In this document: piece by piece, positions 1 through 16,980 of the stretch
How positions within the stretch are numbered: position 1 is the stretch's first letter
How the letters are laid out: every line of letters starts with the position of its first letter
Assembly (NCBI GenBank): GCA_963931495.1
Contig: OZ007020.1
Span: 840,001-872,000 of the forward strand
Reading direction: 5' to 3'
Length of the DNA stretch: 32,000 bases
Origin: an uncultured Alphaproteobacteria bacterium
GTDB lineage: Bacteria > Pseudomonadota > Alphaproteobacteria > Rs-D84
Program-made: the position numbers and the translations under genes
Notes under the pieces: model-generated
What the model saw: only the letters and a program-made list of their open reading frames with translations
Database searches by the model: none
What the model was told of the DNA's origin: nothing

Positions 1-702
1 AACAGCAAAAAAGAATTGGAAGGCGAGGACGATACAGCTGAATCAGAATTGAAGTATCTAACAGTAATACGTGATGTGCGTGATAAGGACCCTGCTTTAT
101 TTGAGAAAGTGAAACGCTTACCACGAAAAGCTCGTACTGCAACCGTTTCTGAAGATAGACCAAACAGCCTTATTAGCTTCTTCCGCAAAGGGGCATTGAA
201 AAAATTTGTTTATTCTGATGACAAGCGATCTGATGAGATTGACTTTATGACCGCCGCCAAGGCCTTTGAATGTACCAGCGCACAAGAAAAAAAGCCTATA
301 CCAAAGGAATTCTTTAATTTGTTAAATCGTAACAAGGCGTTCTTAGATGCTCTGACACACACTGAAGAACACATGCCAACAATCCGTTCCGGTCGTTCCA
401 ATGATTCAAATATTTTGACTGTGGTTAAATTTCTAATGAAAGACACCACCACATTCACAGAGGAAGACGAAGAATTTTTACAGGCTTTACGCAAAACCAT
501 TGAAATGGGCATGCTGCCAAAAAAGACTGCTCAGGACACGAATAAAGAATTAAAAAAGCACAACCTGAATGACCGTATCAAAGTTCTGGGGTTGCTAAAA
601 AGCCGTTTGTCCAAATCAGTCAATTATCGTACAAACACCCCGGAAAAACCTGCTGGGGACGTTCGTGAAATCATATTGTCTGAATACTTTTATGGAGAAT
701 AA
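1..702 (+). CDS. 3' end of a large upstream gene (5' end lies left of the window). Function is not assignable from this tail; context suggests a partner subunit of the downstream methyltransferase
   Basis: Frame 1 is open from base 1 to TAA at 700-702. The ~230-aa tail is charged and helix-rich. The stop lies 3 nt before the ATG (706) of the 1122-aa methyltransferase, indicating translational coupling. Confidence 0.6.
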   Translation, partial: NSKKELEGEDDTAESELKYLTVIRDVRDKDPALFEKVKRLPRKARTATVSEDRPNSLISFFRKGALKKFVYSDDKRSDEIDFMTAAKAFECTSAQEKKPIPKEFFNLLNRNKAFLDALTHTEEHMPTIRSGRSNDSNILTVVKFLMKDTTTFTEEDEEFLQALRKTIEMGMLPKKTAQDTNKELKKHNLNDRIKVLGLLKSRLSKSVNYRTNTPEKPAGDVREIILSEYFYGE

Positions 703-705
703 GTC

Positions 706-3700
706 ATGCGTATAGATGAAGCCAAACAATTAGTGACCAACGTATTAAAAAACGGATACGACGAAAATAAATTCCGTGAATTGGTGCGTAATCTGTTCAC
801 AGACTTTACACCAAAAGATGATGTATACCGTGGCACCCTTATTTGGGAGGCTTTTCGTGAGCACATTTCTTCGTATAAACGTTTGGCGAAATACGAGAAT
901 AATGGTCAGTCTATTGATGTCTTGGCCGTTTGTGTAAAAAGCGCCAACAAGTTGGAACATGCTCGCACTATGCTGCGTAATTTTGTGTCTAAATACCTGA
1001 ATGGTGGCCGTGGCGGTGTTACTAAAGATGCTGCTTTGGTCGCATTCTATGCACCAGAATGTTCTGATTGGCGATTATCATTGGTCAAAATGGATTACAA
1101 TTACAACGAGGAAAAACAAAGGATTCAAACCGATTTTACACCTGCACGACGCTACTCTTTCTTGGTTGGGGCCAACGAACAAGTTCATACAGCCTGCAAA
1201 CAGTTTTTAGACGTACTTGTAACTGGCGGCAATCCAACTCTACACGAGCTGGAACAGGTATTTAGCATTGAAACTGTATCCAAAGAATTCTTTGAAAAAT
1301 ATAAGGAGCTATTCCTGCGTTTGGTTGATTCTGTCAATGATATCCGTGAGAAAAATGCACGCATCAACTCTGATTTTGAACTCAATAACATAAGCACATC
1401 TTTGTTCTGCAAAAAACTATTGGGACAGATTGTTTTCCTGTATTTTTTGCAGAAAAAGGGTTGGCTAGGTGTAGAAAAAGGCAACCTGTGGGGTACTGGC
1501 GACAAGCACTTCTTGCGTTCTCTGTTTACTATGGCTATATCCAAGGGCGCAAATTATTTCAATGATTATCTCGAACATTTATTCTATGAGGCTATCGCTC
1601 AAAAACGTCCGAATGACTATTTCCCTCTATTTGAATGCAAAATTCCTTTCTTAAACGGAGGCTTGTTTGATCCTATAAAAGATTATGACTGGCGAGGATT
1701 TGACGTTTTAATACCTAATGAGATCTTCTCAAACAAAAATCCGACCAATGAAGGTGATATTGGGGACGGTATACTGGACGTATTTGATCGCTATAATTTC
1801 ACAGTTCGTGAAGATGAAGCGCTGGAAAAAGAAGTGGCTGTCGACCCAGAAATGTTGGGCAAGGTATTTGAAAACTTGTTGGAAGTCAACGATCGAAAAT
1901 CTAAAGGGGCATTCTATACTCCACGTGAAGTTGTTCATTTTATGTGCCAAGAATCCCTCATAAACTATCTGTATAACAAGGTCAATTGTGTTCAAAAAGA
2001 ACTGGTACAGGACCAACAGCCATCGTTCTGCATGTTTCCAAAGCAACAACTAACATTGGCTGAAGATGTATGTGATGAACGAGTTAGCAAGCAGGCTCTG
2101 GCTGATTTTGTCCGATACGGTGATATATTCCGTGAACATGAGCGTTTATCCGCTGAAAAGAACAGCGAAACATACACACATAAAATTGATGCATCCATCA
2201 AGAAATATGCTGAAGATATTGACCAAGCATTGGCTGATGTTTTGATTTTGGATCCTGCTATTGGTTCTGGAGCTTTCCCCGTTGGCATGATGAACGAGAT
2301 TGTTCGAGCAAGATTGAATCTGTTAGAATATGGATATATTTGTTGCAAGGGCGAAATTCGCAACTCCTATACCTATAAACGCCACGCTATTGAGCATTCA
2401 TTATATGGTGTAGATATTGAAGATTCTGCTGTTGAAATCGCAAAATTGCGTTTTTGGTTGTCTTTGATTGTTGATGAGTATGAACCCAAACAAATCAATC
2501 CGTTGCCAAATTTGGACTATAAAATTAGATGTGCCAACTCCCTGTTGAGTATACATGCAGGCTTGTTGAATTACAAAGATTTATCTGATTTGGAACAATT
2601 AAAAGAAAAATTTGTACAGGAATCTGACGGTCGTATCAAAAAGGGTTTAAAAAGTAAAATTGATACATTGTTAGCAAAATTCGCACAAGACGGTGAATTT
2701 GACTATAACATTTTCTTTTCAGAGGTATTCCGTCAGAATGCCGGTTTTGATATAGTAATCGGTAATCCTCCATATGTTCAGTTACAAAAGCTGAAGAATG
2801 ACATTGTTAAACGTGGTGTTCATGCTGGTAAATCGTTCCAAGATTTGTATCGTGAGCAAAACTTTAAAACATTTGAGGGGAATGGGGATCTTTATTGTTT
2901 ATTTTATGAAAAAGGAATTTCCTTATTACGCAACAGGGGTGTCCTGTGTTATATAACTTCTAACAAATGGATGAGAGCCGGTTATGGAGAAAGCATACGT
3001 GATTTCTTTGTGCACTATAACCCCTTGTTATTGATTGACTTAGGAGCCAATGTGTTTACAACGGCCACGGTAGACACTAACATCCTGCTTGTCGAGAAAA
3101 AAGGGTATGACAGAAAGACCTTGTCTTGCGTTATGAAAGACCGTACACAAGATATGAGCGTTTTTGTTAAACAGCGTGCTGTAGATATGTATTTTGATAA
3201 AGAGGCCTGGGTTATTTTAGACCCAATTGAGCAATCTATAAGAAATAAAATTGAAAAGTACGGTACCCCATTAAAAGATTGGGATGTTAATATTTACAGA
3301 GGAATCCTGACCGGCTGTAATGAGGCTTTCATTATAGACGGTGCGAAACGTGCTGAATTGATTGCTGCCGATCCAAAATCTGACGAGATAATACGACCGA
3401 TTTTACGTGGCAGAGATATAAAACGTTATGGCTATGATTTTGCAAATTTATATATGATTTGTACTTTCCCTAGCAAAGGATATAACATTGAAAATTATCC
3501 TGCTATAAAAGATTGGCTTATTAACGGCGATTGGGGTGGAGATGAGATTCCTGTAGGTGCAGGCAAGCTACGCTTGGAACAGACAGGGGAAGAACATTCT
3601 GTAAACGGAGTGAAATTCAGATCTCGTAAAAAGACAAATAATAAATGGTTTGAAACACAGGATAGTATAGGTTATTGGAACGATTTTGCTAAACAAAAAA

Positions 3701-4074
3701 TTATGTACAGCGAAATTGTTAGATCACCACGTTTTTTCCTTGATAATGAGGGGAAATTTTACCCAGAAGCAACCAGCTTTATAATGGTAGGTAATCACTT
3801 AGAATATTTAGTAATGGCTTTGCATTCAAAGATATTAACCTATGCATTTAAAACATTTTATGCAGGTGGTGGCTTAGGAGATGATGGCTATCGGTACAAA
3901 AAAGCATTCTTAGAAAAATTACCAATATACGTTCCAACAGATGCGGATTCTGTTTTTAAGAATTGGCTAGAATCTAATAACGATGCTAAAATAGAGAATT
4001 ATCTGCAAAAAGCATACAAATTAACAGATGATGAACTAGATTTTATTTACGAACAAACGATTTTTTGTGAATAA
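706..4074 (+). CDS. Large gamma-class N6-adenine DNA methyltransferase with fused C-terminal target-recognition domain (Eco57I / Type IIG / BREX PglX-like architecture)
   Basis: Motifs in gamma-class order: GAFYTPREVV (FxTP), LDPAIGSGAFP (SAM-binding motif I), VIGNPPYV (catalytic NPPY motif IV), then RGILTGCNEAFII, the entry of a TaqI_C-type TRD. Single 1122-aa ORF. Confidence 0.9.
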   Translation: MRIDEAKQLVTNVLKNGYDENKFRELVRNLFTDFTPKDDVYRGTLIWEAFREHISSYKRLAKYENNGQSIDVLAVCVKSANKLEHARTMLRNFVSKYLNGGRGGVTKDAALVAFYAPECSDWRLSLVKMDYNYNEEKQRIQTDFTPARRYSFLVGANEQVHTACKQFLDVLVTGGNPTLHELEQVFSIETVSKEFFEKYKELFLRLVDSVNDIREKNARINSDFELNNISTSLFCKKLLGQIVFLYFLQKKGWLGVEKGNLWGTGDKHFLRSLFTMAISKGANYFNDYLEHLFYEAIAQKRPNDYFPLFECKIPFLNGGLFDPIKDYDWRGFDVLIPNEIFSNKNPTNEGDIGDGILDVFDRYNFTVREDEALEKEVAVDPEMLGKVFENLLEVNDRKSKGAFYTPREVVHFMCQESLINYLYNKVNCVQKELVQDQQPSFCMFPKQQLTLAEDVCDERVSKQALADFVRYGDIFREHERLSAEKNSETYTHKIDASIKKYAEDIDQALADVLILDPAIGSGAFPVGMMNEIVRARLNLLEYGYICCKGEIRNSYTYKRHAIEHSLYGVDIEDSAVEIAKLRFWLSLIVDEYEPKQINPLPNLDYKIRCANSLLSIHAGLLNYKDLSDLEQLKEKFVQESDGRIKKGLKSKIDTLLAKFAQDGEFDYNIFFSEVFRQNAGFDIVIGNPPYVQLQKLKNDIVKRGVHAGKSFQDLYREQNFKTFEGNGDLYCLFYEKGISLLRNRGVLCYITSNKWMRAGYGESIRDFFVHYNPLLLIDLGANVFTTATVDTNILLVEKKGYDRKTLSCVMKDRTQDMSVFVKQRAVDMYFDKEAWVILDPIEQSIRNKIEKYGTPLKDWDVNIYRGILTGCNEAFIIDGAKRAELIAADPKSDEIIRPILRGRDIKRYGYDFANLYMICTFPSKGYNIENYPAIKDWLINGDWGGDEIPVGAGKLRLEQTGEEHSVNGVKFRSRKKTNNKWFETQDSIGYWNDFAKQKIMYSEIVRSPRFFLDNEGKFYPEATSFIMVGNHLEYLVMALHSKILTYAFKTFYAGGGLGDDGYRYKKAFLEKLPIYVPTDADSVFKNWLESNNDAKIENYLQKAYKLTDDELDFIYEQTIFCE
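3313..3412. repeat. Left copy of a 100-bp perfect inverted repeat inside the methyltransferase gene
   Basis: Base-by-base identical to the reverse complement of 4702-4801. Encodes GCNEAFIIDGAKRAELIAADPKSDEIIRPILRG and starts at codon position 1 ((3313-706) is divisible by 3). Confidence 0.95.
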
Positions 4075-4960
4075 AATCAACTTCCTCATCGGTTAAGTGA
4101 TAAGCTTCGACCACTAGTTTTTCTATTTGGTTGTCTAGTAGAGAAATATCGGCTCCAACTTGTTTGTTTTCAATGAGATTAGAAACCAATTCATCAAAAA
4201 GAGATTCATTTTCTGAAGGTCTTGGCACAGGTAATATCAGCAATCTGTTTGTTTTTAATTCGCCTTCTATACCGCCACCCATATAAAATTCACGCAAAGC
4301 AAAGTAACATACTTTAGAACATAAGAAACCGAGCAAGTATTTTAAATGTTGCCCCGTTATAATATTACCTGGTGCAGGTGGAAAATGCTGGTCTTCATCT
4401 AACATAAAACAAGGTTCTTGTGCCATAATGCAAGGATACACAATTTTTTGTTTATAAAAATCGTTCATATAAGCACAACTACGTAATTCCCACCAATAGT
4501 CCCCTTTGTCATCACGATCAACCAAACCCTTGCCCTTAGTTGGTCGATTGGCAACATCTGTAAAATGCTGATATACCGCAGGATATGTGCTTTTTATAAA
4601 CACCTCTGGTTTCATATTGCCTCGATTTGAATTTGTGAAACCGCACTCTATGTTTATTAACCACTTGTCATCAAAATCATACCCGTATCTTTTTATGTCT
4701 TTGCCACGTAAAATCGGTCGTATTATCTCGTCAGATTTTGGATCGGCAGCAATCAATTCAGCACGTTTCGCACCGTCTATAATGAAAGCCTCATTACAGC
4801 CAGTTTTAATACCATAGTTGATTGCTATATCCCAATCGCGTAATGGAGTTCCATACTTTTCAATCTTGGCACGTATTGACTGTTCGATAGGATCTAAAAT
4901 AACCCAAGCATCTTTGTCAAAGTACATGTATGTAGCATGGTGTCTAACAAAAACGCTCAT
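4043..4960 (-). CDS. Alternative C-terminal target-recognition cassette of the methyltransferase (partial paralog of residues ~812-1122, probably silent in this orientation)
   Basis: The 305-aa ORF aligns to the methyltransferase tail (MSVFV..YFDK.AWVILDPIEQSIR.KIEKYGTPL.DWD...TGCNEAFIIDGAKRAELIAADPKSDEIIRPILRG.DIKRYGYDF). It then diverges and re-converges at ..LTD.E.DFI. It has no methyltransferase motifs and no convincing RBS upstream. Confidence 0.8.
   Translation of the reverse strand: MSVFVRHHATYMYFDKDAWVILDPIEQSIRAKIEKYGTPLRDWDIAINYGIKTGCNEAFIIDGAKRAELIAADPKSDEIIRPILRGKDIKRYGYDFDDKWLINIECGFTNSNRGNMKPEVFIKSTYPAVYQHFTDVANRPTKGKGLVDRDDKGDYWWELRSCAYMNDFYKQKIVYPCIMAQEPCFMLDEDQHFPPAPGNIITGQHLKYLLGFLCSKVCYFALREFYMGGGIEGELKTNRLLILPVPRPSENESLFDELVSNLIENKQVGADISLLDNQIEKLVVEAYHLTDEEVDFIHKKSFVRK
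4702..4801. repeat. Right copy of the 100-bp perfect inverted repeat inside the silent TRD cassette
   Basis: Reverse complement equals 3313-3412 exactly. Starts at codon position 1 of the minus-strand ORF ((4960-4801) is divisible by 3). Confidence 0.95.
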
Positions 4961-5022
4961 ATTCCCTATTTAATTATTGTCACTAAAATGTAAGGCGTAT
5001 AAACAACAAAAAGGAGTACGTC

Positions 5023-5622
5023 ATGATTTATGGTTATATTAGAGTCAGTACTGACAAACAAACCACAGAAAACCAACGTTTCGAAATCGAGCAGTTCGTA
5101 AACAAAAACAGTATGATTATAGACCAATGGATCAATGAAACTATCAGTGCCACCAAGGCATTAAACAAACGACAATTGGGAAAATTATTGAACAGACTAC
5201 AGACTGGAGATGTATTGATAGCCTCTGAATTATCACGTCTGGGTCGTAATCTATTACAGGTTATGAGCATTTTACATATGTGTATGGATAAGGAGGTACA
5301 AGTTTGGACAATAAAAGATAATTATCGTTTAGGGGCAGACATTCAATCTAAGGTGTTGGCTTTTGCCTTTGGTTTATCTGCGGAGATAGAACGAAATTTA
5401 ATTAGCCAGCGTACCAAGGAGGCATTATTACGTATCAAGGCGGAGGGCAAAGTTTTAGGGAGGCCTATCGGTCGGCGTAGCACCTATGTAAAACTCAGCG
5501 GAAAGGAGACATTAGTCAGAGAATTGTTGAATAATAACATATCAAAAAGCGGCATTGCTCGAATAACAGGCGTACATAGAATAACGGTTGCAAAATTCAT
5601 TCGAGAACGTGTGATCTTATAA
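5023..5622 (+). CDS. Small serine recombinase, DNA invertase/resolvase family (Hin/Gin-like size and layout)
   Basis: 199 aa. N-terminal YGYIRVSTDKQ with the catalytic Ser, then SRLGRN and ERNLISQRTKEAL motifs, and a C-terminal helix-turn-helix (ISKSGIARITGVHRITVAKFI). AAGGAG RBS upstream. Confidence 0.9.
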   Translation: MIYGYIRVSTDKQTTENQRFEIEQFVNKNSMIIDQWINETISATKALNKRQLGKLLNRLQTGDVLIASELSRLGRNLLQVMSILHMCMDKEVQVWTIKDNYRLGADIQSKVLAFAFGLSAEIERNLISQRTKEALLRIKAEGKVLGRPIGRRSTYVKLSGKETLVRELLNNNISKSGIARITGVHRITVAKFIRERVIL

Positions 5623-5660: not shown

Positions 5661-5676
5661 AGTGTCAAGTTATATG

Positions 5677-5700
5677 GACGACATTAGTCGTCTTTTTTTA
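5677..5700 (+). terminator. Intrinsic terminator-like hairpin 1
   Basis: GACGAC-atta-GTCGTC followed by TTTTTTTA. Confidence 0.55.
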
Positions 5701-5702
5701 TT

Positions 5703-5729
5703 GCCTCAGATCTGCTGAGGCTTTTTCTT
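5703..5729 (+). terminator. Intrinsic terminator-like hairpin 2
   Basis: GCCTCAG-atctg-CTGAGGC followed by TTTTTCTT. Ends directly at the GGAGG RBS of the next gene. Confidence 0.6.
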
Positions 5730-5741
5730 GTGGGAGGTTCC

Positions 5742-6539
5742 ATGGCAATTGCAAAGTTATTGCGAGCCAAAAAGGCAAAGAACGACGAATTTTATACGCA
5801 ATATAAAGATGTAAAATCTGAGTGCGACCACTATAGGTTGCATTTTTTTAATAAAATTATTTACTGTAACTGCGATACTGCAGATAGTGCTTTTGTACGA
5901 TATTTTTCTGAATTAAAAGCTCAAGGGCTGATACGTGATATCTGGTTCAGTGGCGGATTGGGCGGTGCTGATTTTCGCAGTCCAGAATCAATAGAACGAT
6001 TAAAACAGGCGGATTTAATTATAACGAATCCGCCTTTTTCTTTGTTTCGTGAGTTTATAGAACTGCTATTTACCAACAATAAACAGTTTCTAATTCTTGG
6101 TAACAGAAGCGCAATAGTTTACAAATACATATTTCCTAAAATAAAAGCCAACGAACTTTGGTTCGGTGTTCGTAGGTGGAGTGGTGGAATAGATTTTATA
6201 ACAGAAAATGGTCTACGTGGTGTTCCTGCTATATGGTTTACCAATATTAAACACGGTTTTGTGCCACCCGATTTACCCTTTAAGAAATCGGTTTTTATGC
6301 CACAATATGACAATGCGAATGCAGTAAACATCGATAAATCAGCTTATTTTCCACCTGACTACACAGGTATTGTAGGTGTACCGATAACTTTTTTAGAATG
6401 GTATAACCCAGAAAAATTCGAGTTGTTGGGTAGAGACAAAGATTTTACAACAGATGGTGACATTTGCAGAATAAACGGAAAACCTGTTTATATTCGCTTA
6501 TTCGTTCGAAGAATAAAAGATTTGCATAAATGTGAATAA
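5742..6539 (+). CDS. EcoRI-methylase-family adenine-specific DNA methyltransferase (no cognate endonuclease evident)
   Basis: N-terminal KAKNDEFYTQYKDV motif, IYCNCD, and catalytic IITNPPFSLFREFI, matching the EcoRI_methylase family as I recall it. The ORF track starts at GTG 5730; ATG 5742 follows a GGAGG. Confidence 0.75.
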   Translation: MAIAKLLRAKKAKNDEFYTQYKDVKSECDHYRLHFFNKIIYCNCDTADSAFVRYFSELKAQGLIRDIWFSGGLGGADFRSPESIERLKQADLIITNPPFSLFREFIELLFTNNKQFLILGNRSAIVYKYIFPKIKANELWFGVRRWSGGIDFITENGLRGVPAIWFTNIKHGFVPPDLPFKKSVFMPQYDNANAVNIDKSAYFPPDYTGIVGVPITFLEWYNPEKFELLGRDKDFTTDGDICRINGKPVYIRLFVRRIKDLHKCE

Positions 6540-6559
6540 AAACATTATACTATCATATT

Positions 6560-7729
6560 ATGAAGCATTTAATTGTCTTGTTGCTATTGCTACTACCAGT
6601 AAGTGGGTTTGCATTTGATGTGAGTCAATTAAATGAATGCTCTTTTGTGACGACAAAAACTTTCACAAAAAGTGATAGTATGGAAGTAAATAGATATATT
6701 CAAAGCACACAAGGGCTAGTCGATTTATTCGGTACAAAACGAGTAGATTCAAAAACTCGTTATGTTTATCAAGGCAATGAGCAAATTGAGCTGGTCAGCG
6801 ATTCTAGCTGGCGATATTTCTTTCCTGATTCATGGAATGGTCGTGGTAAAGGAAAGCTAATATATGACCAAAATGAGGTCATGCGTTCTGGTGCAGCCGG
6901 TGATATGCTTGTTGTCGCAAATTGTGACGAAGAAATTTTATTGTTACTGATTAAACAAAACCACCCAATGTCAAAAGAAGTGTATAGTTTTATCGGTATC
7001 AATGAAATGATTGATAATGAACCACAATCAAAACCATCTTTTTTTGAACGGTTATTTGGCACTAAAAAATCAGAAGCTAAGCAAGCAGAAAAATTGGCAA
7101 AGGTTGAATTATCCGTTTCTGATGAAAAACCAGCGCAGAAAAAGCAACGCAAACGAAAATATTCTGAACCAGATATGGATTTGTCACCAACCGCCTATGA
7201 ACAGATAGATTTTGAAGCAATGCGCCATAAAACGAATAAAAATATTGTAATTATCGGTGAAGCTCGGGTTGTTGATGGCGATACGTTAGTTATTGAAGAC
7301 TTATTTAATATTAGAATGGTCGGGATTGATGCGCCAGAAAGCAAACAAACATGCAAAGATGCGAAAGGTAAAGAATACGCATGTGGTGAACAATCTACAA
7401 AACATTTACAGACCCTAATCGGTCGAGGACGTGTTAAATGCGAAATGCGTGGAACTGGTAAATATGGCCGTCATACAGCATTATGCTATAATTCTAAAAA
7501 CGAAAATTTGAACAGGAAAATGGTTGAGGACGGTTATGCTGTTGTTTCTACATATCCCCCCATCTTGTTTGCCGACTCTGAAAAGAACGCCATAGAAAAT
7601 AAGCTAGGCATTTGGCAAGGGGATTTTGTACACCCGAACTGTTTCCGCCATAAAAAGAATGAGGACTGGGATAAATCCGTTTGCGATGGATATAAAAATT
7701 ATCGCGGTTGGTCAACCATTGAAAAATAA
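6560..7729 (+). CDS. Secreted/periplasmic protein with a C-terminal staphylococcal (thermo)nuclease-fold domain
   Basis: Signal peptide MKHLIVLLLLLLPVSGFA. An unassigned ~150-aa N-terminal domain, then a K/E-rich linker. The SNase signature follows: VVDGDTL...IRMVGIDAPES...GKYGRHTALCY...LNRKMVEDGYAVV. Confidence 0.8.
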   Translation: MKHLIVLLLLLLPVSGFAFDVSQLNECSFVTTKTFTKSDSMEVNRYIQSTQGLVDLFGTKRVDSKTRYVYQGNEQIELVSDSSWRYFFPDSWNGRGKGKLIYDQNEVMRSGAAGDMLVVANCDEEILLLLIKQNHPMSKEVYSFIGINEMIDNEPQSKPSFFERLFGTKKSEAKQAEKLAKVELSVSDEKPAQKKQRKRKYSEPDMDLSPTAYEQIDFEAMRHKTNKNIVIIGEARVVDGDTLVIEDLFNIRMVGIDAPESKQTCKDAKGKEYACGEQSTKHLQTLIGRGRVKCEMRGTGKYGRHTALCYNSKNENLNRKMVEDGYAVVSTYPPILFADSEKNAIENKLGIWQGDFVHPNCFRHKKNEDWDKSVCDGYKNYRGWSTIEK

Positions 7730-8213: not shown

Positions 8214-9563
8214 CTAAAACCTTTGCATCATAGAAAATTCTATACCCCATTTATCAAATTCACGTTGCCATATATTTGAATCACGGCGCATATAACTAAA
8301 TGTGAAAGTTGGAACAAAATTCCATACCTCCAATTTACTATTTGAAATTGATACCGCATACCTTTGTGTTAAACTGCTTTCTGCAATTTGTTCAAACTTT
8401 CCGTCTTTTACAACCCAGCGCATATCATCATAATCCTGCAAATACGCAGATACATCAAAATATACATTGAACTGTGCCGGCAAATCTATCCCAAAACCTA
8501 TTCCTAAACTTGGTCGCCAATTTGAATACACTCTATCCTTTGTAACCTCTCTTGCAACTCCTAGTCGCAACATTACATATTTTGAGGAATCAAACGAATG
8601 TATAAAGCGACTTGTAGCGTCATACGTTTGACCATCTAAAATCAATCCAAAATCATCGTATGTATTATCACTAACAAGAAGCGACAGTTGCCCAGATGTC
8701 TTACGTGTAAAATCATAGTTTATATTTAAACGCCCACCAGCAGACCAATTATAAGGGTTCCAACCATACCACCGCCTGCTTGCCGTTGCAGCAAACCATA
8801 CATCGCCGTTTTCCCATACATACCTTGGTCCTGAACTTACAAATAATAACAAGTCATCAAAATCGTGCTTATTATAGATATTTGCATAAATATTCGCATC
8901 CGATTTCCAACGCCACTGTTCTGACAATCGAAACTCGTAATCACCACCTAAAACGAAGTTAAGCCCAACTGCTTTTTCTGGCTCAGGTAATTGTCTACAT
9001 AATGGTCCAAAAATCGTATCGACACATTCTTCCCCACCAACAGAAGTGTTAATATTATTATCTGGTGCCATGCCTAAGTTTAAATACACATTCCAGTTTT
9101 TGTTCTGACGAATTACGTATCTCATATAATTCATCACATTTTTTATATCGTCTGGTAAGTCTTTACCTGCCATGGCACGACGTAACTGATAATCTGCCTG
9201 CCGCCATTGTTTTGTGTTCATATAGCAAATTGCTAATTCAAATCTAACTCTTGCTAAATCTGGATATTTATCAAGGATTTTGCGATATATTTTTATCGCT
9301 TCTTCATAATCTTTGTTTGCGGCTGCAACTCGTCCCCGTAGAAAATTTTGTTCTATATTTAACGCAACATTATCAGCTTCAGGCAACTGCTTTAATATCT
9401 CATCTGCATCTTTAATATTTCCAGCATCTATCAAAGCACCCGTTATTTTTAGGGCATCAACCATAGAAACAGTAACTTCATGTTGTTTTTCGGAACCAAC
9501 ATTCTCTGCCCAGCATACTTCTGGCAATAAATAGACAATAATTGCAAGTATAGCTTTTCTCAC
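8214..9563 (-). CDS. Slam-type surface lipoprotein assembly modulator / DUF560 outer-membrane protein (type 11 secretion system)
   Basis: Signal peptide, N-terminal TPR-like helices (YEEAIKIYRKILDKYPDLARVRFELAICYMNTKQW). The C-terminal ~280 aa is aromatic- and Gly-rich with alternating pattern and a terminal Phe (..FSMMQRF), typical of a beta-barrel. Flanked by TbpB-barrel-like lipoprotein genes. Confidence 0.75.
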   Translation of the reverse strand: MRKAILAIIVYLLPEVCWAENVGSEKQHEVTVSMVDALKITGALIDAGNIKDADEILKQLPEADNVALNIEQNFLRGRVAAANKDYEEAIKIYRKILDKYPDLARVRFELAICYMNTKQWRQADYQLRRAMAGKDLPDDIKNVMNYMRYVIRQNKNWNVYLNLGMAPDNNINTSVGGEECVDTIFGPLCRQLPEPEKAVGLNFVLGGDYEFRLSEQWRWKSDANIYANIYNKHDFDDLLLFVSSGPRYVWENGDVWFAATASRRWYGWNPYNWSAGGRLNINYDFTRKTSGQLSLLVSDNTYDDFGLILDGQTYDATSRFIHSFDSSKYVMLRLGVAREVTKDRVYSNWRPSLGIGFGIDLPAQFNVYFDVSAYLQDYDDMRWVVKDGKFEQIAESSLTQRYAVSISNSKLEVWNFVPTFTFSYMRRDSNIWQREFDKWGIEFSMMQRF

Positions 9564-9654
9564 TATATTACACCAATTTTAGTAACTATATTCTAAGTAT
9601 ATGTTAATTTTTATTACACAAATATCAATCGTATTTTTACCAATAATATAAAAA

Positions 9655-9690
9655 GTAAAAAGCCACCTTATTTATGGTGGCTTTTATTTT
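9655..9690 (-). terminator. Bidirectional intrinsic terminator downstream of lipoprotein SLP1
   Basis: AGCCACC-8 nt-GGTGGCT with T-runs on both strands, 7 nt beyond the SLP1 stop codon. Confidence 0.7.
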
Positions 9691-9696
9691 TAACAA

Positions 9697-10659
9697 TTAC
9701 TTTGCTCCAAATGCAACATCTAGTTTTATACCAGATTCATGTTCTTGAAACTGAAGCAAACCATTTGCCTCTGTTGGTATACCATTTTCTGGCTTCGGAG
9801 CATAATAATTCACATCCATGTTTGCACCGGACATAATAATATCCCCGTTTGCGTCTGGCTGGGTTCCAAACTTTACTAAATCTTCCTTATTTTTATAGTT
9901 GCTAAACACAATTGTACCAGTAGCATTATCTTGCACATTTATATCGTACCAATTCCCAAACGTGGCCCCAAGGCTACTAATACCACTTGCACTATCAAAA
10001 CGAAGAGTCGCCTCGCCATCTAAGCTAACTTTAGCAGAATTCGAACTAGCTTGTCCAACCGCTCTACCAGTAAATTTTACATTAGTAGCAATGTTTGAAG
10101 TATCAACTCTATTTGCAACATTAACATCTATAAATGGAATATTTTCGCTTATATTATTTTGTTCGCCTGTGATGTTTATTTTATCTATTTTATACGTTCC
10201 AAAATTAGAATACGACAATCCCAATTCTTTTCCTAGATAATCATATTCTTTTATATCTTCAATGTTTATTTCGTCTACATATCTTAAACCAGAAACCCTA
10301 CGAGACGGTCTTCCTCCAGTATCTTCTTTAGGCACATAGTCTGTTTTATCGCCACGATCGTCATTTGGTGAACGTTCCGAACTATCACCTCTTCCATCAC
10401 TAGGCACATAATTTGTACTATTTCCTCGACCACCTGTCGGATTACGTCCCCCAGTGTCACCCCGATCATCTTCTGGTGTATGAGGCACTTCACCACGATC
10501 ATCGCTTGGTGTACGATTTGCTGAATCGCCTCGATCATCAGTTGGAATATGTGGACTACAACCTCGCCCAGTATCTACACAAGTTGGAGAATATCCTCTG
10601 TCTCCGCCACCACAGGCACTCAACAACATAACGATTATCAAGCAAGTTATTTTTTTCAC
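9697..10659 (-). CDS. Surface-lipoprotein candidate SLP1: lipobox, DDRGD-repeat linker, TbpB-like C-terminal beta-barrel
   Basis: GTG start at 10659 preceded by GGGAGAG; the ORF track's upstream extension lacks a signal peptide. Lipobox LLSAC. C-terminal paralog motifs YLGKELGLSYSNFG, KFTGRAVG, GEATLRFD, NWYDI, VNYYAP, PTEANG, and terminal AFGAK. Confidence 0.75.
   Translation of the reverse strand: MKKITCLIIVMLLSACGGGDRGYSPTCVDTGRGCSPHIPTDDRGDSANRTPSDDRGEVPHTPEDDRGDTGGRNPTGGRGNSTNYVPSDGRGDSSERSPNDDRGDKTDYVPKEDTGGRPSRRVSGLRYVDEINIEDIKEYDYLGKELGLSYSNFGTYKIDKINITGEQNNISENIPFIDVNVANRVDTSNIATNVKFTGRAVGQASSNSAKVSLDGEATLRFDSASGISSLGATFGNWYDINVQDNATGTIVFSNYKNKEDLVKFGTQPDANGDIIMSGANMDVNYYAPKPENGIPTEANGLLQFQEHESGIKLDVAFGAK
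10300..10608 (-). repeat. Degenerate tandem coding repeat (P-x-DDRG-D/E-x5-6) forming a low-complexity linker
   Basis: Protein segment GGGDRGYSPT..TDDRGDSANRTPSDDRGEVPHTPEDDRGDTGGRNPTGGRGNSTNYVPSDGRGDSSERSPNDDRGDKTDYVP contains four RGD plus RGE, RGN and RGC variants. Confidence 0.8.
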
Positions 10660-10748
10660 TTCTCTCTCCCAACTTATTTGTGAGTTCCTATCTCTTTGCT
10701 TTAAGTATACCACAAAAACACAGTACAAACAAGCCCATTAAACAAGAA

Positions 10749-10801
10749 ACGGCTAATCTGAAAACAATCTACAAATAACTTAGACTGTTATGATTAGCCG
10801 T
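10749..10801 (-). terminator. Long hairpin downstream of the glycine-rich gene (possible terminator)
   Basis: 10-bp stem ACGGCTAATC / GATTAGCCGT with a 33-nt loop, followed by TTCTTGTTT on the minus strand. Weak U-tract. Confidence 0.3.
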
Positions 10802-10823
10802 CTTTTCTAACTATATTACGATA

Positions 10824-11720
10824 TTAGCGAACTTTTTCTTGCGCCTTTCTCAGCTGTTCTATTTTTAACAACCAAACCGCTCCTGTTCCACCAACACCGC
10901 CGGCACCACCTTGACCATTGATGCCTCTACCAGGTGAAGTCGGGTTAACCCCATTTTGACCAGATGTCCAGGCGCCGCCGCCACCGCCACCTTTTCCACC
11001 GGCAACTCCTGTCATACTCGGTCTGCTTGCTGGAGCAGTACCATTAGATCCATTTCCGCCTGCAATATACTGTGCGATATCGTCTGCAGAAAGAGTCATT
11101 ATATTGCTCTCTGTAATAGACAGCCCATTGACACTTGCTCCACGACCACCTAACCCAGCACCGTCAATATTTTCAGCACCTTTGCCACCAGTACCTCCTG
11201 CTCTAACAGTTCATCTTACTGCACCAACCGTTGAACTTTCACCACTACCGTTACTGCCTTGTCCTCCAGGTATTGGGCTGATGGATGGCATTGTACCAGA
11301 GGATACTCTTATCCCCGGATTTCCCCCAGCACCACCACCACGAGATCCAACGTAACCCTGCGCTCCAACAGAGTCACCAGGAATAGCTGGAGTATTTCCT
11401 ACCCCTCCAACTGTGGATCCAGAGCCTGCTTTTGGTATACTAAGATTTATCGCACCAACTAAACGGGTAACGTTTTCACTAATCTCAATGTTTAAAGCCC
11501 CGGCCTCAACATTTTGATAAGTATTTACAAAAACATATGCTCCGCCACCGCCGCCACCGCCAGCTGCGCCATCATCACGAGTAGCAGGTCTATAGTTATT
11601 TGCCCTAGAAGTTCCACCTTTCGCACCGTTACCTCCAGGTCCAATAACCACAACCCTATAGGTACCGGCTTCAAGTGTTGTTGAATACTGTCCAGCTGAT
11701 TTATAACTTAACAACGCCAT
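10824..11720 (-). pseudogene. Glycine-rich-domain protein gene interrupted by one in-frame TGA (11211-11213); a nonsense pseudogene or a read-through gene
   Basis: ATG 11720 has a perfect AAGGAGG RBS. ORFs 11211..11831 and 10824..11099 are in the same frame. The 37 codons between them (TVRAGGTGGKGAENIDGAGLGGRGASVNGLSITESNI) contain no stop. Domain start (GTYRVVVIGPGGNGA) and end (GAVWLLKIE) motifs lie on opposite sides of the TGA. Confidence 0.7.
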
Positions 11721-11842
11721 TTTGCCCTCCTTATTTTTGCTTTTTGTGACTATGAAAACCGTATCATAGCCTTCACTAAAAAGATTACATTCATAAATAA
11801 ATCCCACAAGTTTTTTATTTTTAAAAGTCAAACTTTATTCAC

Positions 11843-11870
11843 TTGAAAAAATGCTTTTTACAGTTATAAT
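11843..11870 (+). promoter_or_regulatory. Candidate sigma70 promoter for SLP2
   Basis: TTGAAA (11843-11848), a 16-nt spacer, then a perfect TATAAT (11865-11870), about 60 nt upstream of ATG 11931. Confidence 0.45.
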
Positions 11871-11930
11871 TATTACTTGTCAAAACCGCAAAAAACAAGA
11901 CTTTTTTCCTATTTTCAAAGGAGAAATAGA

Positions 11931-13163
11931 ATGAAAAAAATTATCTTACTAATTACTTGTAATCTCTTAGCTGCATGTAGTTTATGGAATGAAGATATAA
12001 GTAAATATTCTTCAAACTCCGGCTCCAATCGTGACCCATATGATCCAAGTGTAGAAGTTCCATATAAAAACATTGCTCACGAGAGCAATAAAAAGGTTAC
12101 GAATATGGTATCTACAACTTATGACCAATTAAACAGATTTATTGCACACAGAATGGGCGGTTATTCTGCTTTCCCTATAAACGATTATCAAGAAATCGCA
12201 AAACTAGCCGTTTGGCTAACTTCAGAAGAAAGAACTGCAAAAGAAATTGAAGATAAGTTTTATGAGAATGCTGTTTTGCTGCATAATGCTATGTATGTTG
12301 TTAATAAAAAATTAGCAGGCTGTGTAAATTTCACCGCTTCAAGCTCAGGCGCAGATGCAGGGGCCTGTTTTGTTAAGTGGAGAGAAGAAAATGCAGATAA
12401 ATTTGACAAAGCTGCCCAAGATATTCGTGACAATGCGGACTTAATCAGTCTTCAGGAAGCAAGCTTTTCAACTAACAACGATACGGTTTTACGTTTCCTG
12501 TTAAATGACGCATCGCCGAATGGTGCAGATGGTGAAATAACAAAAATCGAAGTAAATGGGACACGATATACTCGCATTGATGACAGTAACTCATTCCAAA
12601 ATGGGGATGCTATTTTAACGTATAATTCACTTGGGAAAGAATTAGGACTTTCTTACTCTGATTTTGGAAGTTACTATATATTGAATAAAAAAACGGACAA
12701 AATCTTAACAAACAATACACCTTTTGCCGGTGGTTACGAAGCCCGTGAAGTTACTAACATTTCTCAAGATATGAAATTCACAGGTCGTGCTGTTGGTGTG
12801 GTAACAAACAATAAAAATTCTTCCGAGCGCATAGATATATCTGGAACGGCCACATTAAACTTTGACCAGAAATCTGGCGTAAGTACTTTAGGTGCCAATT
12901 TTTCCAATTGGTACGACATAGTTGTTCAAAACGATTCCGCAGGAACAATCAAGTTTAATAATTATAAGAACAATGCGAATAACTACGACATGCAGGTTTC
13001 TGGCAGTCCAGTTGAGGGAACAATAACTGCAAATGGTGCAGATTTAAATGTTAAATATTATGGTCAAGTACCAACAACTGGGATACCAACAGAAGCCTCT
13101 GGCTTAGTTCAATACAATGACCCTAACAGCATAAAATTAGATATGGCTTTCGGTGCAAAGTAA
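11931..13163 (+). CDS. Surface-lipoprotein candidate SLP2: lipobox, helical N-terminal domain, TbpB-like C-terminal barrel
   Basis: GGAG RBS then MKKIILLITCNLLAAC lipobox. The N-domain (AVWLTSEERTAKEIE...CFVKWRE) is shared with SLP3. C-terminal motifs YNSLGKELGLSYSDFG, NTPFAGGY, KFTGRAVG, GTATLNFD, NWYDI, VKYYG, PTEASG, AFGAK. Confidence 0.8.
   Translation: MKKIILLITCNLLAACSLWNEDISKYSSNSGSNRDPYDPSVEVPYKNIAHESNKKVTNMVSTTYDQLNRFIAHRMGGYSAFPINDYQEIAKLAVWLTSEERTAKEIEDKFYENAVLLHNAMYVVNKKLAGCVNFTASSSGADAGACFVKWREENADKFDKAAQDIRDNADLISLQEASFSTNNDTVLRFLLNDASPNGADGEITKIEVNGTRYTRIDDSNSFQNGDAILTYNSLGKELGLSYSDFGSYYILNKKTDKILTNNTPFAGGYEAREVTNISQDMKFTGRAVGVVTNNKNSSERIDISGTATLNFDQKSGVSTLGANFSNWYDIVVQNDSAGTIKFNNYKNNANNYDMQVSGSPVEGTITANGADLNVKYYGQVPTTGIPTEASGLVQYNDPNSIKLDMAFGAK
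12615..12667. repeat. 53-bp perfect inverted repeat, copy in SLP2
   Basis: TTAACGTATAATTCACTTGGGAAAGAATTAGGACTTTCTTACTCTGATTTTGG equals the reverse complement of 13752-13804. Starts at codon position 1 and encodes LTYNSLGKELGLSYSDFG. Confidence 0.95.
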
Positions 13164-13246
13164 TCAGCAAGCGACCGTTTTTGAAATATCGTGTGCTTAT
13201 TGATTATAACTATATTGCTTTTCGATTAGCGAAAAACTACCTTGTT

Positions 13247-14509
13247 TTACTTTGCTCCGAACGCAATATCCATTTTTACATTTGAACCGTTTTCTTGAAA
13301 ATGTACCAAGCCGGTTGCCTCCGTTGGCACACCAGTTGCGGGCATTGGTGCATAATAATTCACGTTCATTTCTGCATTAGAATAAACTATAGGACCTTTC
13401 CCATCCCCTGTATCCGCTTGTAGCTTTACAAGCCCATCCGCATTCTTGTAGTTATCAAACTCAATAGAACCATTAGTATTAACTAATACATCATACCAAT
13501 TATTAAACGAGGCCCCAAGTGTACTACCTCCTGTGTTTGAATTAAACGTTAATGTGGCTTCACCCTTTAAATCTACGACTTGACTATCCGATGATGCAAC
13601 ACCAACAGCAACACCACTAAAGTCTACATTTTGTTTAATATCTTCTTCTGCCACTTTATGCATTGAATAACCACCAGCGAAAGGCGTATTATCAGCGATC
13701 ACTTGCTTCACTTCACCAGAGTCTTGATATTTATCTACCACATTATAGATACCAAAATCAGAGTAAGAAAGTCCTAATTCTTTCCCAAGTGAATTATACG
13801 TTAATGTTTGTTTTATAAATGAGCCATCCTGGAATAAAATACTATAAAACTCATTATTATTCTCACGATTTGCATACTCTGTATTTTCCGAATTATTTTT
13901 AAGTTTTATACCTGTTATACTTCCTGTTTCTTCATCAACAACGAAGCTTAGTTGCATATTATTAGCAGCTTCAAACAATGCATTGCTAGCATCTAACTTA
14001 AATGTGTTTTGATATATATCATTTGAAATATAATTAAATTCATCGGGGTGTGTATCACGCCATCTCACGAAACATTGCGCGGCCCCGTTAACTCCGCCAG
14101 ATTTAAAACAAGAATTCAATCTGTTGTCTACCACATACACAACCATATGCATTAGAGTCAAATTATCTGCAAAATATTGTTCTATCTCATTAACTGTTCT
14201 ATTACCGCTAGTAAGCCAGACAGCCGCTTCAGCAATATCAACTTGAGAAATATCTTCACCTGTGTTTGGGTTATAATCATTCCACTTATTTAATCTATAA
14301 GTTATATAGTCAACAATCTGGCTATCTGTCCGTGACAATATTCCAGTCAATTTGGAGTTTTCTTCAACAGCAGAATTTACAAAGGGACCGCTAGGATTTG
14401 TAGGATTTCCTACAGAGCCATTACCACCTGAAGGATAGGATATTGTTTTGTCACTTCCAGCACACGCACTTAAGGTTAGTAACAAAAGGATCAAGAGTTC
14501 TTTTCTCAT
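13247..14509 (-). CDS. Surface-lipoprotein candidate SLP3 (paralog of SLP2)
   Basis: AAGGTGG RBS then MRKELLILLLLTLSAC lipobox. N-domain AVWLTSGNRTVNEIE...CFVRWRD. The same C-terminal barrel motifs, ending IAFGAK. Confidence 0.8.
   Translation of the reverse strand: MRKELLILLLLTLSACAGSDKTISYPSGGNGSVGNPTNPSGPFVNSAVEENSKLTGILSRTDSQIVDYITYRLNKWNDYNPNTGEDISQVDIAEAAVWLTSGNRTVNEIEQYFADNLTLMHMVVYVVDNRLNSCFKSGGVNGAAQCFVRWRDTHPDEFNYISNDIYQNTFKLDASNALFEAANNMQLSFVVDEETGSITGIKLKNNSENTEYANRENNNEFYSILFQDGSFIKQTLTYNSLGKELGLSYSDFGIYNVVDKYQDSGEVKQVIADNTPFAGGYSMHKVAEEDIKQNVDFSGVAVGVASSDSQVVDLKGEATLTFNSNTGGSTLGASFNNWYDVLVNTNGSIEFDNYKNADGLVKLQADTGDGKGPIVYSNAEMNVNYYAPMPATGVPTEATGLVHFQENGSNVKMDIAFGAK
13752..13804. 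repeat. 53-bp perfect inverted repeat, copy in SLP3
   Basis: Reverse complement identical to 12615-12667. Codon position 1 in SLP3 ((14509-13804) is divisible by 3). Confidence 0.95.
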
Positions 14510-14671
14510 AGGTCCACCTTTTTTCGCATAATATATCAAACAACTATTCTCATTGATCCTATATATTTTAATAAAACACAGCTTTATTATACGATAGCTT
14601 TAATCCGCACAATTCTCTTACTACTTTAAAACAAACCTTTCAAAAATCATTCTAATAATATACTGTTACGC

Positions 14672-15610
14672 CTACTTTTTTACACCAAAATTTATAATGG
14701 CGTTTACATTTTCATCCTCTAAACCGATAAAACCAACTGCCTCCGTCGGAACCCCATCACCATAATAATTAGTTTTCATATCTGTAACGGTAGGTTTTTC
14801 CATACCGAACATTTCATCTTTACCGGTGGGATTATCCTCACTATAGTTTTTTAGAGTCACACTTTGCACATTGCTTCCTTGACATTCCACATCAACATCA
14901 TACCAATTATCAAAATTTGCTTTTATTTGCTCCACACCATCATAAAATGTAAGTTCTGCGTCACCAGCCAACTCTAAAACATCAACTTCATTCGTTTCTA
15001 CATCACTTGTCGCAGTAACTCTACCTATCGCTTTCCCTGAAAACACTAATCTATCTTGCGTATTTATTTCTTCTTTGGATATTTGTTTAATTTTATAGCC
15101 ACCAGCAAAAAATGGTTTATCTCTAATCTCTATTCCATCTGACAATCTTTCAACATATACATCTAAAGTACCAAAGTCTGCATATGTTAATCCCAATTCT
15201 TTTCCTAAGCTATTATAAGTTATTTCCCCCCGAATCCCGCCAGAGTTTTCATTATATACAACCAAAAACGTATTTGCTTCGCCTTTTCTAACGGCTTCTA
15301 TATCATAAACACCAACATCATTTCCCAATTCAAAATCTTCTAATACAATTTTTTCAACTTTACCATAATCGCCAACACCAAAACTAATATCTTTCACCTT
15401 GCTTACATCATCTTCAAAAAGAGCATATAACCCCACATCATCTAAATGTAACACATTTTCATCAACAACTATCCTTGTCATCATACCTGTTATTTGTTTA
15501 TTACTCATAACCGCAATATCTCTAGGTGGTATAGAGCCGGAGGGAACCGTTGTTCCTCCACCACATGCAACCAACAAAGAAACAAACAAAATGGCTATTC
15601 CTTTTCTCAT
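14672..15610 (-). CDS. Surface-lipoprotein candidate SLP4 (shorter paralog)
   Basis: MRKGIAILFVSLLVAC lipobox. Motifs YNSLGKELGLTYADFG, FFAGGY, VFSGKAIG, GDAELTF, NWYDV, TNYYG, PTEAVG, terminal NFGVKK. Confidence 0.75.
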   Translation of the reverse strand: MRKGIAILFVSLLVACGGGTTVPSGSIPPRDIAVMSNKQITGMMTRIVVDENVLHLDDVGLYALFEDDVSKVKDISFGVGDYGKVEKIVLEDFELGNDVGVYDIEAVRKGEANTFLVVYNENSGGIRGEITYNSLGKELGLTYADFGTLDVYVERLSDGIEIRDKPFFAGGYKIKQISKEEINTQDRLVFSGKAIGRVTATSDVETNEVDVLELAGDAELTFYDGVEQIKANFDNWYDVDVECQGSNVQSVTLKNYSEDNPTGKDEMFGMEKPTVTDMKTNYYGDGVPTEAVGFIGLEDENVNAIINFGVKK

Positions 15611-15663
15611 TTTATATTTTGAAAGTGGCTACAAATAGTGCAACCACTTTCTCATCCTACTTA

Positions 15664-16836: not shown

Positions 16837-16980
16837 AATTTTCTCCTTTGTTTCAATTATCCTTGCCACCTATCCGAATGTATAGCACAAAAAACTATAT
16901 AAAAAAAACTTTTATGTGACCAAAATACAGAAAAACAACTTGCTTGTAGCTATGTTTAATGTTAGACTTACTTAAGTATT

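Follow-up and report, generated by a model that had tools for sequence, protein, structure and literature searches.

A probable three-site nested inversion shufflon acting on the DNA-recognition domain of a single-chain adenine methyltransferase

The stretch analyzed here, hereafter the window, comprises 32,000 nucleotides (nt) of contig OZ007020.1 (positions 840,001 to 872,000) and carries near its left end a gene for an N6-adenine methyltransferase (MTase), an inverted partial copy of that gene, and a serine recombinase gene. We interpret these genes as a three-site nested DNA-inversion shufflon for the DNA-recognition domain of the MTase within a two-gene restriction/defense-type system, and we assign to this reading a probability of roughly 0.78. 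In natural relatives of the locus, modules of the target recognition domain (TRD) are reciprocally exchanged between the two gene positions, and the breakpoints fall within three short cores.

The MTase gene (706..4074, forward strand) encodes a gamma-class N6-adenine MTase of 1122 amino acids (aa) with a C-terminal TaqI_C-type TRD, as judged from Pfam, PADLOC, and sequence motifs; it is the presumed expression site of the shufflon. Converging on it with a 32-nt overlap is a TRD-only open reading frame (ORF) of 305 aa on the reverse strand (4043..4960), hereafter the cassette, whose only Pfam match is TaqI_C. The cassette start lies 62 nt from that of a 199-aa small serine invertase of the Mpi family (5023..5622, forward strand; NF009949 and Pfam Resolvase), the presumed catalyst. 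A first-pass annotation, made from the letters and their ORFs alone, had described these three ORFs with their convergence and overlap, and all are present in the ORF list. Residues 817–1118 of the MTase align with residues 1–301 of the cassette at 44% identity (BLASTP, E = 2e-75), and the pairing of a 1122-aa target with a 305-aa inverted partial paralogue has the size asymmetry expected of programmed inversion. The cassette carries no MTase motifs by Pfam, no promoter-like site was seen in front of it, and its Shine-Dalgarno sequence is weak and badly spaced (AGGGA, 3 nt before the ATG), in agreement with the earlier description of an ORF without MTase motifs or a convincing ribosome-binding site. 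It is thus predicted to be silent in the window arrangement.

A repeat finder returned three inverted repeats. The first has arms of 291 nt (3152–3442 and 4672–4962) that are 82% complementary; their alignment opens with an 18-nt perfect match at 3152–3169 and includes a perfect 100-nt block (3313–3412 versus 4702–4801). Both copies of this block begin at codon position 1, since 3313 − 706 and 4960 − 4801 are multiples of 3, so that alignment and coordinate arithmetic agree with what had been noted before. The second repeat (45 nt, 3663–3707 and 4437–4481) holds a third crossover site, and the earlier view that the two tails are essentially unrelated beyond the 100-nt block therefore had to be abandoned. 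The third repeat (4010–4056 and 4061–4107) was rejected as a fourth site: its arms are 4 nt apart and mirror the conserved C-terminal helix of both tails. An in-frame swap had been proposed for a single segment bounded by the 100-nt block. The in-frame swap is borne out, but the single segment gives way to three nested sites, S1 to S3. By their coordinates, each of the three lies in the same codon phase in both copies, and the inverted repeats overlap both coding sequences.

The sites divide the recognition region into modules, given here in forward-strand order at the expression site. S1 (ATATGAGCGTTTTTGTTA, 18 nt) lies at 3152..3169 with its inverted partner at 4945–4962 and is invariant across the two arms of the window and the two of the related locus L002; its core, GAGCGTTTTT (3156–3165), matches GANCGWTTTT. 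Module A follows (3170..3390; residues ~823–896, including the conserved TGCNEAF entry of the TRD), present in the window as allele a1, with allele a2 as its inverted partner on the reverse strand (4724–4944). S2 (ATACGACCGATTTTACGTGGCA, 22 nt; 3391..3412, inverted partner 4702–4723) lies inside the 100-nt perfect block; its core GACCGATTTT (3395–3404) again matches GANCGWTTTT, and across loci the site was counted as CGACCGATTTTACGTGG. Module M, the first half of the TaqI_C domain, is represented at the expression site by m1 (267 nt; 3413..3677) and in the cassette by m2 (237 nt; 4467..4701, reverse strand), which is silent in the window; the two alleles share only 52% identity. S3 (GAACGATTTT, 10 nt; 3678..3687, inverted partner 4457–4466) encodes (W)NDF. 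Between the S3 copies, the central segment E (3688..4456) contains two convergent C-terminal modules, c1 at the expression site (3688–4074, forward strand) and the silent c2 (4043–4456, reverse strand), and the cassette as a whole reads a2-m2-c2. M corresponds to residues ~904–990 and C to residues ~995–1122, both within the Pfam TaqI_C match.

The window sequence, which is also that of ERZ21549424 and others, was compared with L002 (SRR26717814), L003 (JGI 3300000304), and L004 (ERZ16268206), all from independent samples, and with a fragment, L005; L003, L004, and L005 were obtained from look-ups of cassette homologues. An exact-pattern scan for the S1 junction returned 0 matches in a metagenome contig collection that lacks the JGI contig. 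A search with the window MTase had returned P0121, the 1112-aa MTase of L002, which is 90% identical to it and has a mosaic tail: its middle is that of the silent cassette of the window and its end that of the window's expression-site tail. The four loci are ~99% identical outside the shufflon where their context is shared, and the gene order of L002 matches that of the window. By blastn, window positions 3152–3687 are 100% identical, in inverted orientation, to the cassette position of L002, and window cassette positions 4723–4469 are identical to its MTase position, while the orientation of the central part (3672–4472) is unchanged. The MTase and cassette positions read, respectively, a1-m1-E(+) and a2-m2 in the window, a3-m2-E(+) and a1-m1 in L002, a1-m1-E(−) and a1-m2 in L003, and a1-m2-E(+) and a3'-m1 in L004. 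Four samples of one lineage thus present four arrangements, as expected of a gene-altering programmed inversion locus in the sense of Milman et al. (2023).

From sample to sample, modules M and E are unchanged (100% identity), and every complete locus has exactly one each of m1, m2, c1, and c2. The m1 sequence of the window recurs at 100% identity in the cassettes of L002 and L004 and at the MTase position of L003; m2 occupies the MTase expression site in L002 (1112-aa ORF) and in L004. Segment E reads in one direction in the window and in L002, L004, and L005 but is flipped in L003, again at 100% identity. One inversion at S3 separates the window arrangement from that of L003; two inversions, one outer and one inner, separate it from L002 or L004, and L002 and L004 differ by an exchange of A modules that requires S1 and S2. 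Each of the three sites occurs once forward and once reversed in every locus compared. A listing of the junctions gave four left/right flank combinations at S3 (window, L002, L003, and L004, with the switch within 10 nt), all four a × m combinations across loci at S2, and reciprocal ones at S1, where the A modules of L002 and L004 flank the site reciprocally; the switch points always fall inside the cores of 10, 22, and 18 nt (S3, S2, and S1). The resulting MTase ORFs are intact at 1122 aa (m1c1), 1112 aa (m2c1), and 1131 aa (m1c2), as are the cassettes at 305, 315, and 296 aa, so that three of the four possible tails have been caught at the expression site and the suggested tail swap of a single-chain MTase from an inverted cassette is supported by natural variants. 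Mis-assembly is an unlikely source of the L002, L003, and L004 arrangements because the decisive perfect repeats in these loci, at 10–22 nt, are presumably shorter than usual assembler k-mer sizes. Five independent short-read contigs of the same species (L094–L098) stop 90–310 nt upstream of the recombinase, inside the cassette repeat; this was rejected as a sign of orientation heterogeneity, the 100-nt perfect repeat being longer than k and sufficient to explain the contig ends.

L004 has further peculiarities. A 23-nt tandem duplication (TAGACACTAACATCCTGCTTGTC; L004 7895–7940, ~window 3071) lies in its MTase gene ~80 nt upstream of S1 and splits it into ORFs of 796 and 296 aa (ERZ16268206 scaffold_1188); the disruption could be natural, making this a knockout, or an error of assembly. 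Its helicase-MTase-cassette part is ~98.7% identical to that of L003, whereas DNA identity falls to ~72% in the recombinase region. The L004 recombinase is 89% identical to that of the window as protein, and downstream L004 has a Peptidase_S51 gene in place of the EcoRI_methylase and SNase genes of L003, with a phage-type integrase at its left end. Given this similarity in the MTase part and difference in surroundings, the switch module seems to sit in different contexts and is probably mobile.

The three cores share the pattern GANCGWTTTT. Seven matches to it occur in the 32-kb window against 0.9 expected, six of which are the three site pairs; the count is partly circular, as the pattern was derived from these sites. 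A match to the S3 10-mer as good as that found in S1 or S2 has p = 0.009 or 0.0013 among random 18-mers or 22-mers of the window, respectively. Because S2 is read in a different frame from S1 and S3, the similarity is a DNA-level motif. In L006, whose recombinase is 78% identical to that of the window and whose MTase is only ~42% identical, the same three 10-mers are present, forward and reverse, only within its shufflon; L018 retains the S2 pair. The palindrome TTTTCT-N4-AGAAAA, which L006, L018, and L069 carry where S3 would lie, was rejected as a crossover center, as the crossover here maps 5' of it.

With these cores in hand, the 100-nt block takes on a different meaning. The arms of L002 are only 74% identical, with a longest perfect run of 22 nt, and when they are compared with those of the window, only 3152–3169 and 3391–3412 are invariant across all four; S2 is thus the sole part of the block shared by all of them. 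Positions 3313–3390 are identical in both window arms, and L003 has allele a1 in both arms (291 nt at 98%). Since only these 18 + 22 nt are common to the four arms, the window block is best read as S2 plus 78 nt of the cassette arm converted to a1, i.e., a gene-conversion tract, and it would be a strain-specific feature instead of a conserved crossover site. The earlier surmise of ongoing recombination or conversion fits this tract around S2.

In the mechanism that we propose, the last 306 codons of the MTase gene and the promoterless inverted cassette are built from the same modules A, M, and C, and recombination of one copy of a site with its inverted counterpart would exchange, in frame, everything distal to it. 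Up to eight arrangements would be accessible; the expressed enzyme could carry either A allele, and m1/m2 × c1/c2 would give four TRDs, in enzymes of 1122, 1112, 1131, and 1121 aa. Nesting of the sites would thereby allow half-TRD modules to be shuffled combinatorially. It is plausible that M and C, both within the Pfam TaqI_C match, each contribute part of sequence recognition. Each M/C combination would then methylate a different sequence and, together with the PLD-SNF2 partner described below, direct restriction to it, with bet-hedging in phage defense and possibly a phasevarion as the outcome. We infer that switching also occurs within a population or clone, and that the adjacent Mpi-family invertase catalyzes the exchange.

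The recombinase scored 316.1 bits against NCBIfam NF009949 (cutoff 272; profile positions 1–197 of 203), and it has the motif YIRVSTDKQ with the catalytic S9 and a Pfam Resolvase match at residues 2–143. The earlier assignment to small serine invertases is therefore upheld, and that to the Hin/Gin class is replaced by the Mpi family. Gin is the closest solved structure, yet a distant one (E = 8e-13, catalytic domain only). HTH_7 was not detected in the window recombinase at E ≤ 0.01, although the L024 and L081 homologues aligned with it do give a match. The gene has a strong ribosome-binding site (AAGGAG, 7 nt upstream), and its exact product sequence occurs on at least 23 public contigs. Recombinases 58–89% identical to it adjoin equivalent cassettes in L006, L007, L008 (Erysipelotrichaceae metagenome-assembled genome, MAG), L018 (Christensenellales), L024 (Mailhella), L048 (Bacillota), and L081 (an alphaproteobacterium), so that cassette-linked loci span Firmicutes, Desulfovibrionaceae, and Alphaproteobacteria. 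A profile of the clade, scanned against metagenome contigs, returned 80 loci at 63–76% identity; in at least 55 of these, the recombinase has a TaqI_C-type TRD as its immediate neighbor, and the remainder have mixed neighbors, including SusC-like receptors and HsdS. Conversely, among 80 loci of this MTase family in GTDB species representatives, an inverted-repeat-flanked cassette is present in only six, four of which have this recombinase clade, one a tyrosine recombinase, and one no recombinase nearby. The genomic neighborhoods thus point to a strong association of the clade with TaqI_C cassettes across phyla.

A broader generalization is more doubtful, and we offer it as a tentative possibility. 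The dedicated Mpi-like clade and the TaqI_C cassette might form a portable, cross-phylum specificity switch acting on a ~10-nt core (GANCGWTTTT in this lineage) whose three positions in the TRD are fixed and in frame, with halves M and C, split at W-N-D-F, assorting independently and each setting part of the recognition. If so, four or more methylation/restriction specificities would be drawn from one gene.

Several observations weigh against the shufflon as we describe it. Permutation alone does not account for how the A alleles (a1, a2, a3) vary from strain to strain: a1, a2, a3, and a3' are distributed differently among loci, and conversion or allelic replacement also acts on module A. Across the sample series to which the window belongs (ERZ215494xx/ERZ21564551), every long-read assembly carries the window arrangement, and the m2-c2 form, predicted at 1121 aa, was not seen at the expression site and had no match in public proteins. 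No dyad symmetry of the serine-recombinase type was seen by eye around the cores. GANCGWTTTT is absent from the shufflons of the more distant loci L008, L048, and L081 and occurs in L024 as a lone unpaired copy, and it was accordingly rejected as a universal core. Finally, L010 has a tyrosine recombinase instead, and L069 has a cassette with no recombinase nearby.

The last of these points, like the action of conversion on module A, would suit an account in which the inversions are real but the repeats are exchanged by homologous recombination of the general kind, or by gene conversion, the recombinase being irrelevant or one of several routes. Long near-perfect arms do exist (100 nt in the window, 291 nt at 98% in L003, and 136 + 149 nt in L006), and a precedent has been reported for the pneumococcal spnIII locus, on which there is a paper titled 'Recombination of the Phase-Variable spnIII Locus Is Independent of All Known Pneumococcal Site-Specific Recombinases' (PMC6620402). 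Yet the exchanges at S3 take place within a mismatch-flanked 10-nt core in three independent loci, and 10 nt is too short for RecA-type recombination. The L002 arms, with their low identity and perfect runs of at most 22 nt, the motif common to the three cores, and the co-occurrence of the recombinase clade with cassettes across phyla also argue for a site-specific reaction, and we regard homologous recombination as an unlikely main route.

A still smaller likelihood attaches to the possibility that the cassette is expressed as a stand-alone TRD-only protein, for instance as a second specificity subunit or in competition with the MTase, with inversion as a secondary matter. The ORF is intact, its own ATG stands at the exact start of homology, S1 preserves the upstream sequence and the ATG whatever inverts, and there are thousands of homologous stand-alone ORFs of ~300 aa (of 4050 cassette homologues, the top 120 are mostly stand-alone ORFs of ~280–310 aa). 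However, the missing promoter-like site, the poorly placed AGGGA, and the lack of MTase motifs speak against it; integrity of the ORF is needed anyway for the modules to work once swapped in, and the cassette ATG equals the internal Met817 of the MTase inside S1, so that the site itself explains its conservation. That the locus is a frozen relic, an old partial TRD duplication beside an unrelated recombinase with sample differences due to horizontal allelic exchange, is very improbable: the single arrangement in the sample series, the A-allele differences beyond what inversion alone can produce, and decay in the form of the frameshifting duplication in the L004 MTase would fit, but M and E are 100% identical across samples despite changed position and orientation, each genome has a complete reciprocal set, architecture and recombinase clade are conserved across phyla, and a locus described with the same architecture has been validated by long reads (PMC9881135).

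We now turn from the exchange to the enzyme that would undergo it. The MTase contains Pfam domains Eco57I, N6_Mtase, MmeI_Mtase, and TaqI_C (the last at residues 898–1074), the motifs DPAIGSG (516–522) and NPPY (687–690), and has as its top PADLOC model REase_MTase_IIG (PDLC03596, E = 3e-304). As a single chain with gamma-class N6-adenine MTase motifs and a TaqI_C/MmeI-type TRD, it resembles Type IIG enzymes. No Pfam family match and no nuclease domain were detected in residues 1–400. Directly upstream, the last 228 codons of a PLD-nuclease/SNF2-helicase gene (16..702, forward strand) are present, its 5' part being truncated by the window start; the complete homologue in L002 (966–4139) encodes 1057 aa with PLDc_2, SNF2-rel_dom, and Helicase_C domains by NCBIfam. 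Because 69 of the 80 GTDB loci have a helicase homologue upstream of the MTase gene and in the same orientation, the core system appears to be a two-gene unit of a PLD-SNF2 helicase/nuclease and an MTase-TRD protein. The nuclease is likely the PLD domain of this separate protein, and the system may therefore be two-component rather than true Type IIG. A GTDB scan with the MTase profile gave a closest match of 51% identity, and the exact MTase sequence is found on 8 public contigs.

The AlphaFold (AF2) model of the MTase is only of moderate confidence (pLDDT 69.6) and was used for the fold family alone. Its Foldseek neighbors are CamA, PglX/BrxX, M.BseCI, MmeI, BpuSI, and DrdV, which would place it in the superfamily of gamma-class N6-adenine MTases with a TaqI-like TRD; in the CamA, PglX, and MmeI families, the TaqI-like TRD reads the DNA sequence. 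The model has low-confidence stretches in the TRD at residues 865–872, 901–912, and 985–1002 (window ~3298–3321, 3406–3441, and 3658–3711). Such stretches adjoin S2 and S3, and the crossover sites may coincide with inter-module linkers. Against the NCBIfam models, the MTase scored 34–48 bits with BREX PglX (cutoffs 400–900) and 154 bits with DrmD (cutoff 610), all far under or below cutoff; neither BrxC/PglZ nor DrmA/DrmB was found in the L002, L003, and L004 loci. No Methylase_S domain was found in the MTase by Pfam, and the swapped target is TaqI_C, so the locus is not a Type I hsdS inverton.

To date, the closest published counterpart comes from Milman, Yelin and Kishony (NAR 2023), who predicted >11,000 gene-altering inversion loci and confirmed 22 by long reads (PMC9881135). 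Among the inversions of Type II RM enzymes, a confirmed Bacteroides ovatus locus (CP083813.1 5322008–5329826) has as its target a coding sequence of 3369 nt (5324991–5328359), the length of the MTase gene here, annotated as a Cj0031 homologue with a PLD + SNF helicase coding sequence directly upstream and homologues in three phyla. A short inverted partial paralogue, repeats overlapping both genes, and multi-phylum homologues are common to both loci; the host here is, in contrast, probably an uncultured alphaproteobacterium. The likeness is drawn from the published description of that locus. The first-pass annotation had regarded a serine-invertase-linked switch of a single-chain MTase as unusual, a view that gives way before these published inversions of the same architecture; Mpi-family recombinases are also listed there among the enriched neighbors of inversion targets (PMC9881135). 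For gut bacteria, Ni et al. (bioRxiv 2025) further describe Type I, II, and III systems in which fragments of MTase genes are rearranged by inversion (PMC11741434).

Both the phenomenon and the gene architecture were thus already published in 2023, and the picture of how such systems work is unchanged. What is added here are natural variants that map the crossovers to 10–22 nt, a three-site, two-half-TRD design with a candidate core motif, and the tight link of one Mpi-like clade to TaqI_C cassettes. In the passages of the 2023 article that were consulted, the three sites, the 10-nt core, and the clade-cassette link are not described, and analysis of adjacent recombinases and repeats for target motifs is named there as a further direction (PMC9881135). 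The locus makes testable whether an Mpi-type serine invertase acts at short intragenic sites and whether the halves of a TaqI_C TRD read separate parts of the target; the latter, if true, would help the rational re-engineering of Type IIG/IIL and PglX-like enzymes.

Type I hsdS invertons (SpnD39III/ivr, B. fragilis, and Mycoplasma hsd) share with this locus silent inverted half-specificity genes, nested repeat pairs, combinatorial assembly of two recognition half-modules, and the expectation of alternative methylation/restriction specificities. They differ in that the target here is the C-terminal TaqI_C TRD of a single-chain MTase and not HsdS (Methylase_S); in ivr, moreover, the recombinase is the tyrosine recombinase CreX/PsrA, whereas here it is a small serine invertase. 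BREX type 1 loci with pglX inversions, reportedly described by Goldfarb et al. in 2015, have a related MTase fold (PglX/BrxX being among the top structural matches) and an inverted partial copy beside a recombinase, and an internal module swap there needs two nested inversions, as between window and L002. Unlike them, the present locus has no BREX genes, its MTase is far under the PglX cutoffs, and the C-terminus itself is also swapped. In the L. rhamnosus pglX locus, single-inversion variants lack the PglX C-terminus (PMC9881135), whereas each arrangement observed here keeps an intact ORF.

With Mpi, the master DNA invertase of B. fragilis, the recombinase shares its family (NF009949), the small serine type, and, on the reading proposed here, action at short inverted repeats of ~10 bp. 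Mpi-type sites have been given as ARACGTTCGTN, and as GTTCGTTTAA in B. intestinalis (PMC8375218); the core GANCGWTTTT differs from these. Mpi works in trans and flips promoters at many loci far from its own gene, whereas the clade described here adjoins its target, where it would act at three sites lying in frame within a coding sequence. Hin/Gin/Cin and the R64 shufflon likewise swap C-terminal protein parts (tail fiber, PilV) by site-specific inversion; the former differ in family, and no hix/gix-like 26-bp dyad was seen here by eye, while R64 relies on the tyrosine recombinase Rci.

Downstream of the recombinase, two terminator-like hairpins (5676–5721) separate it from genes at 5730–7729 for an EcoRI_methylase-family adenine MTase, whose ORF spans 269 aa and whose called product has 265 aa, and a secreted protein of 389 aa with an SNase domain. 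These two genes are absent from L004, L006, and L008, and they consequently lie outside the switch module. A myovirus-type prophage, recognized by tail sheath, tape measure, and GPD genes, extends from ~19 kb onward and had no near match in the phage collection; the nearby tailed prophage noted earlier is hence present, but it is not relevant to the switch.

Between these features, window positions 8214–17844 contain a Slam gene (SlipAM/TPR_Slam) followed by ~8 kb of ORFs without Pfam matches, presumably Slam-dependent surface lipoproteins. The nearest named relatives of the Slam protein are from Rickettsiales/Alphaproteobacteria MAGs (~60% identity), and this region is the most strain-divergent part of the window (93% versus L003). 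Downstream of the Slam gene, at 11877–14539, lie two convergent lipoprotein-like paralogues of 428 and 430 aa (by ORF) with 38% identity and lipobox-like N-termini. They share a 75-nt inverted repeat (12615–12689 and 13730–13804) with a 53-nt perfect core that encodes LTYNSLGKELGLSYSDFG, and the sole GANCGWTTTT match outside the MTase shufflon (13173–13182) is located in the 83-nt intergenic gap of the pair. To judge from this layout, the pair may constitute a second gene-altering inversion that swaps C-terminal halves.

The locus also lies on a 958,617-bp hifiasm contig (L090; ERZ21564551 s287.ctg000449c), whose 'c' suffix usually denotes a circular contig, and a second contig with the same proteins measures 968,759 bp. 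The host genome or replicon may accordingly be ~1 Mb in size, with ~37–38% GC.

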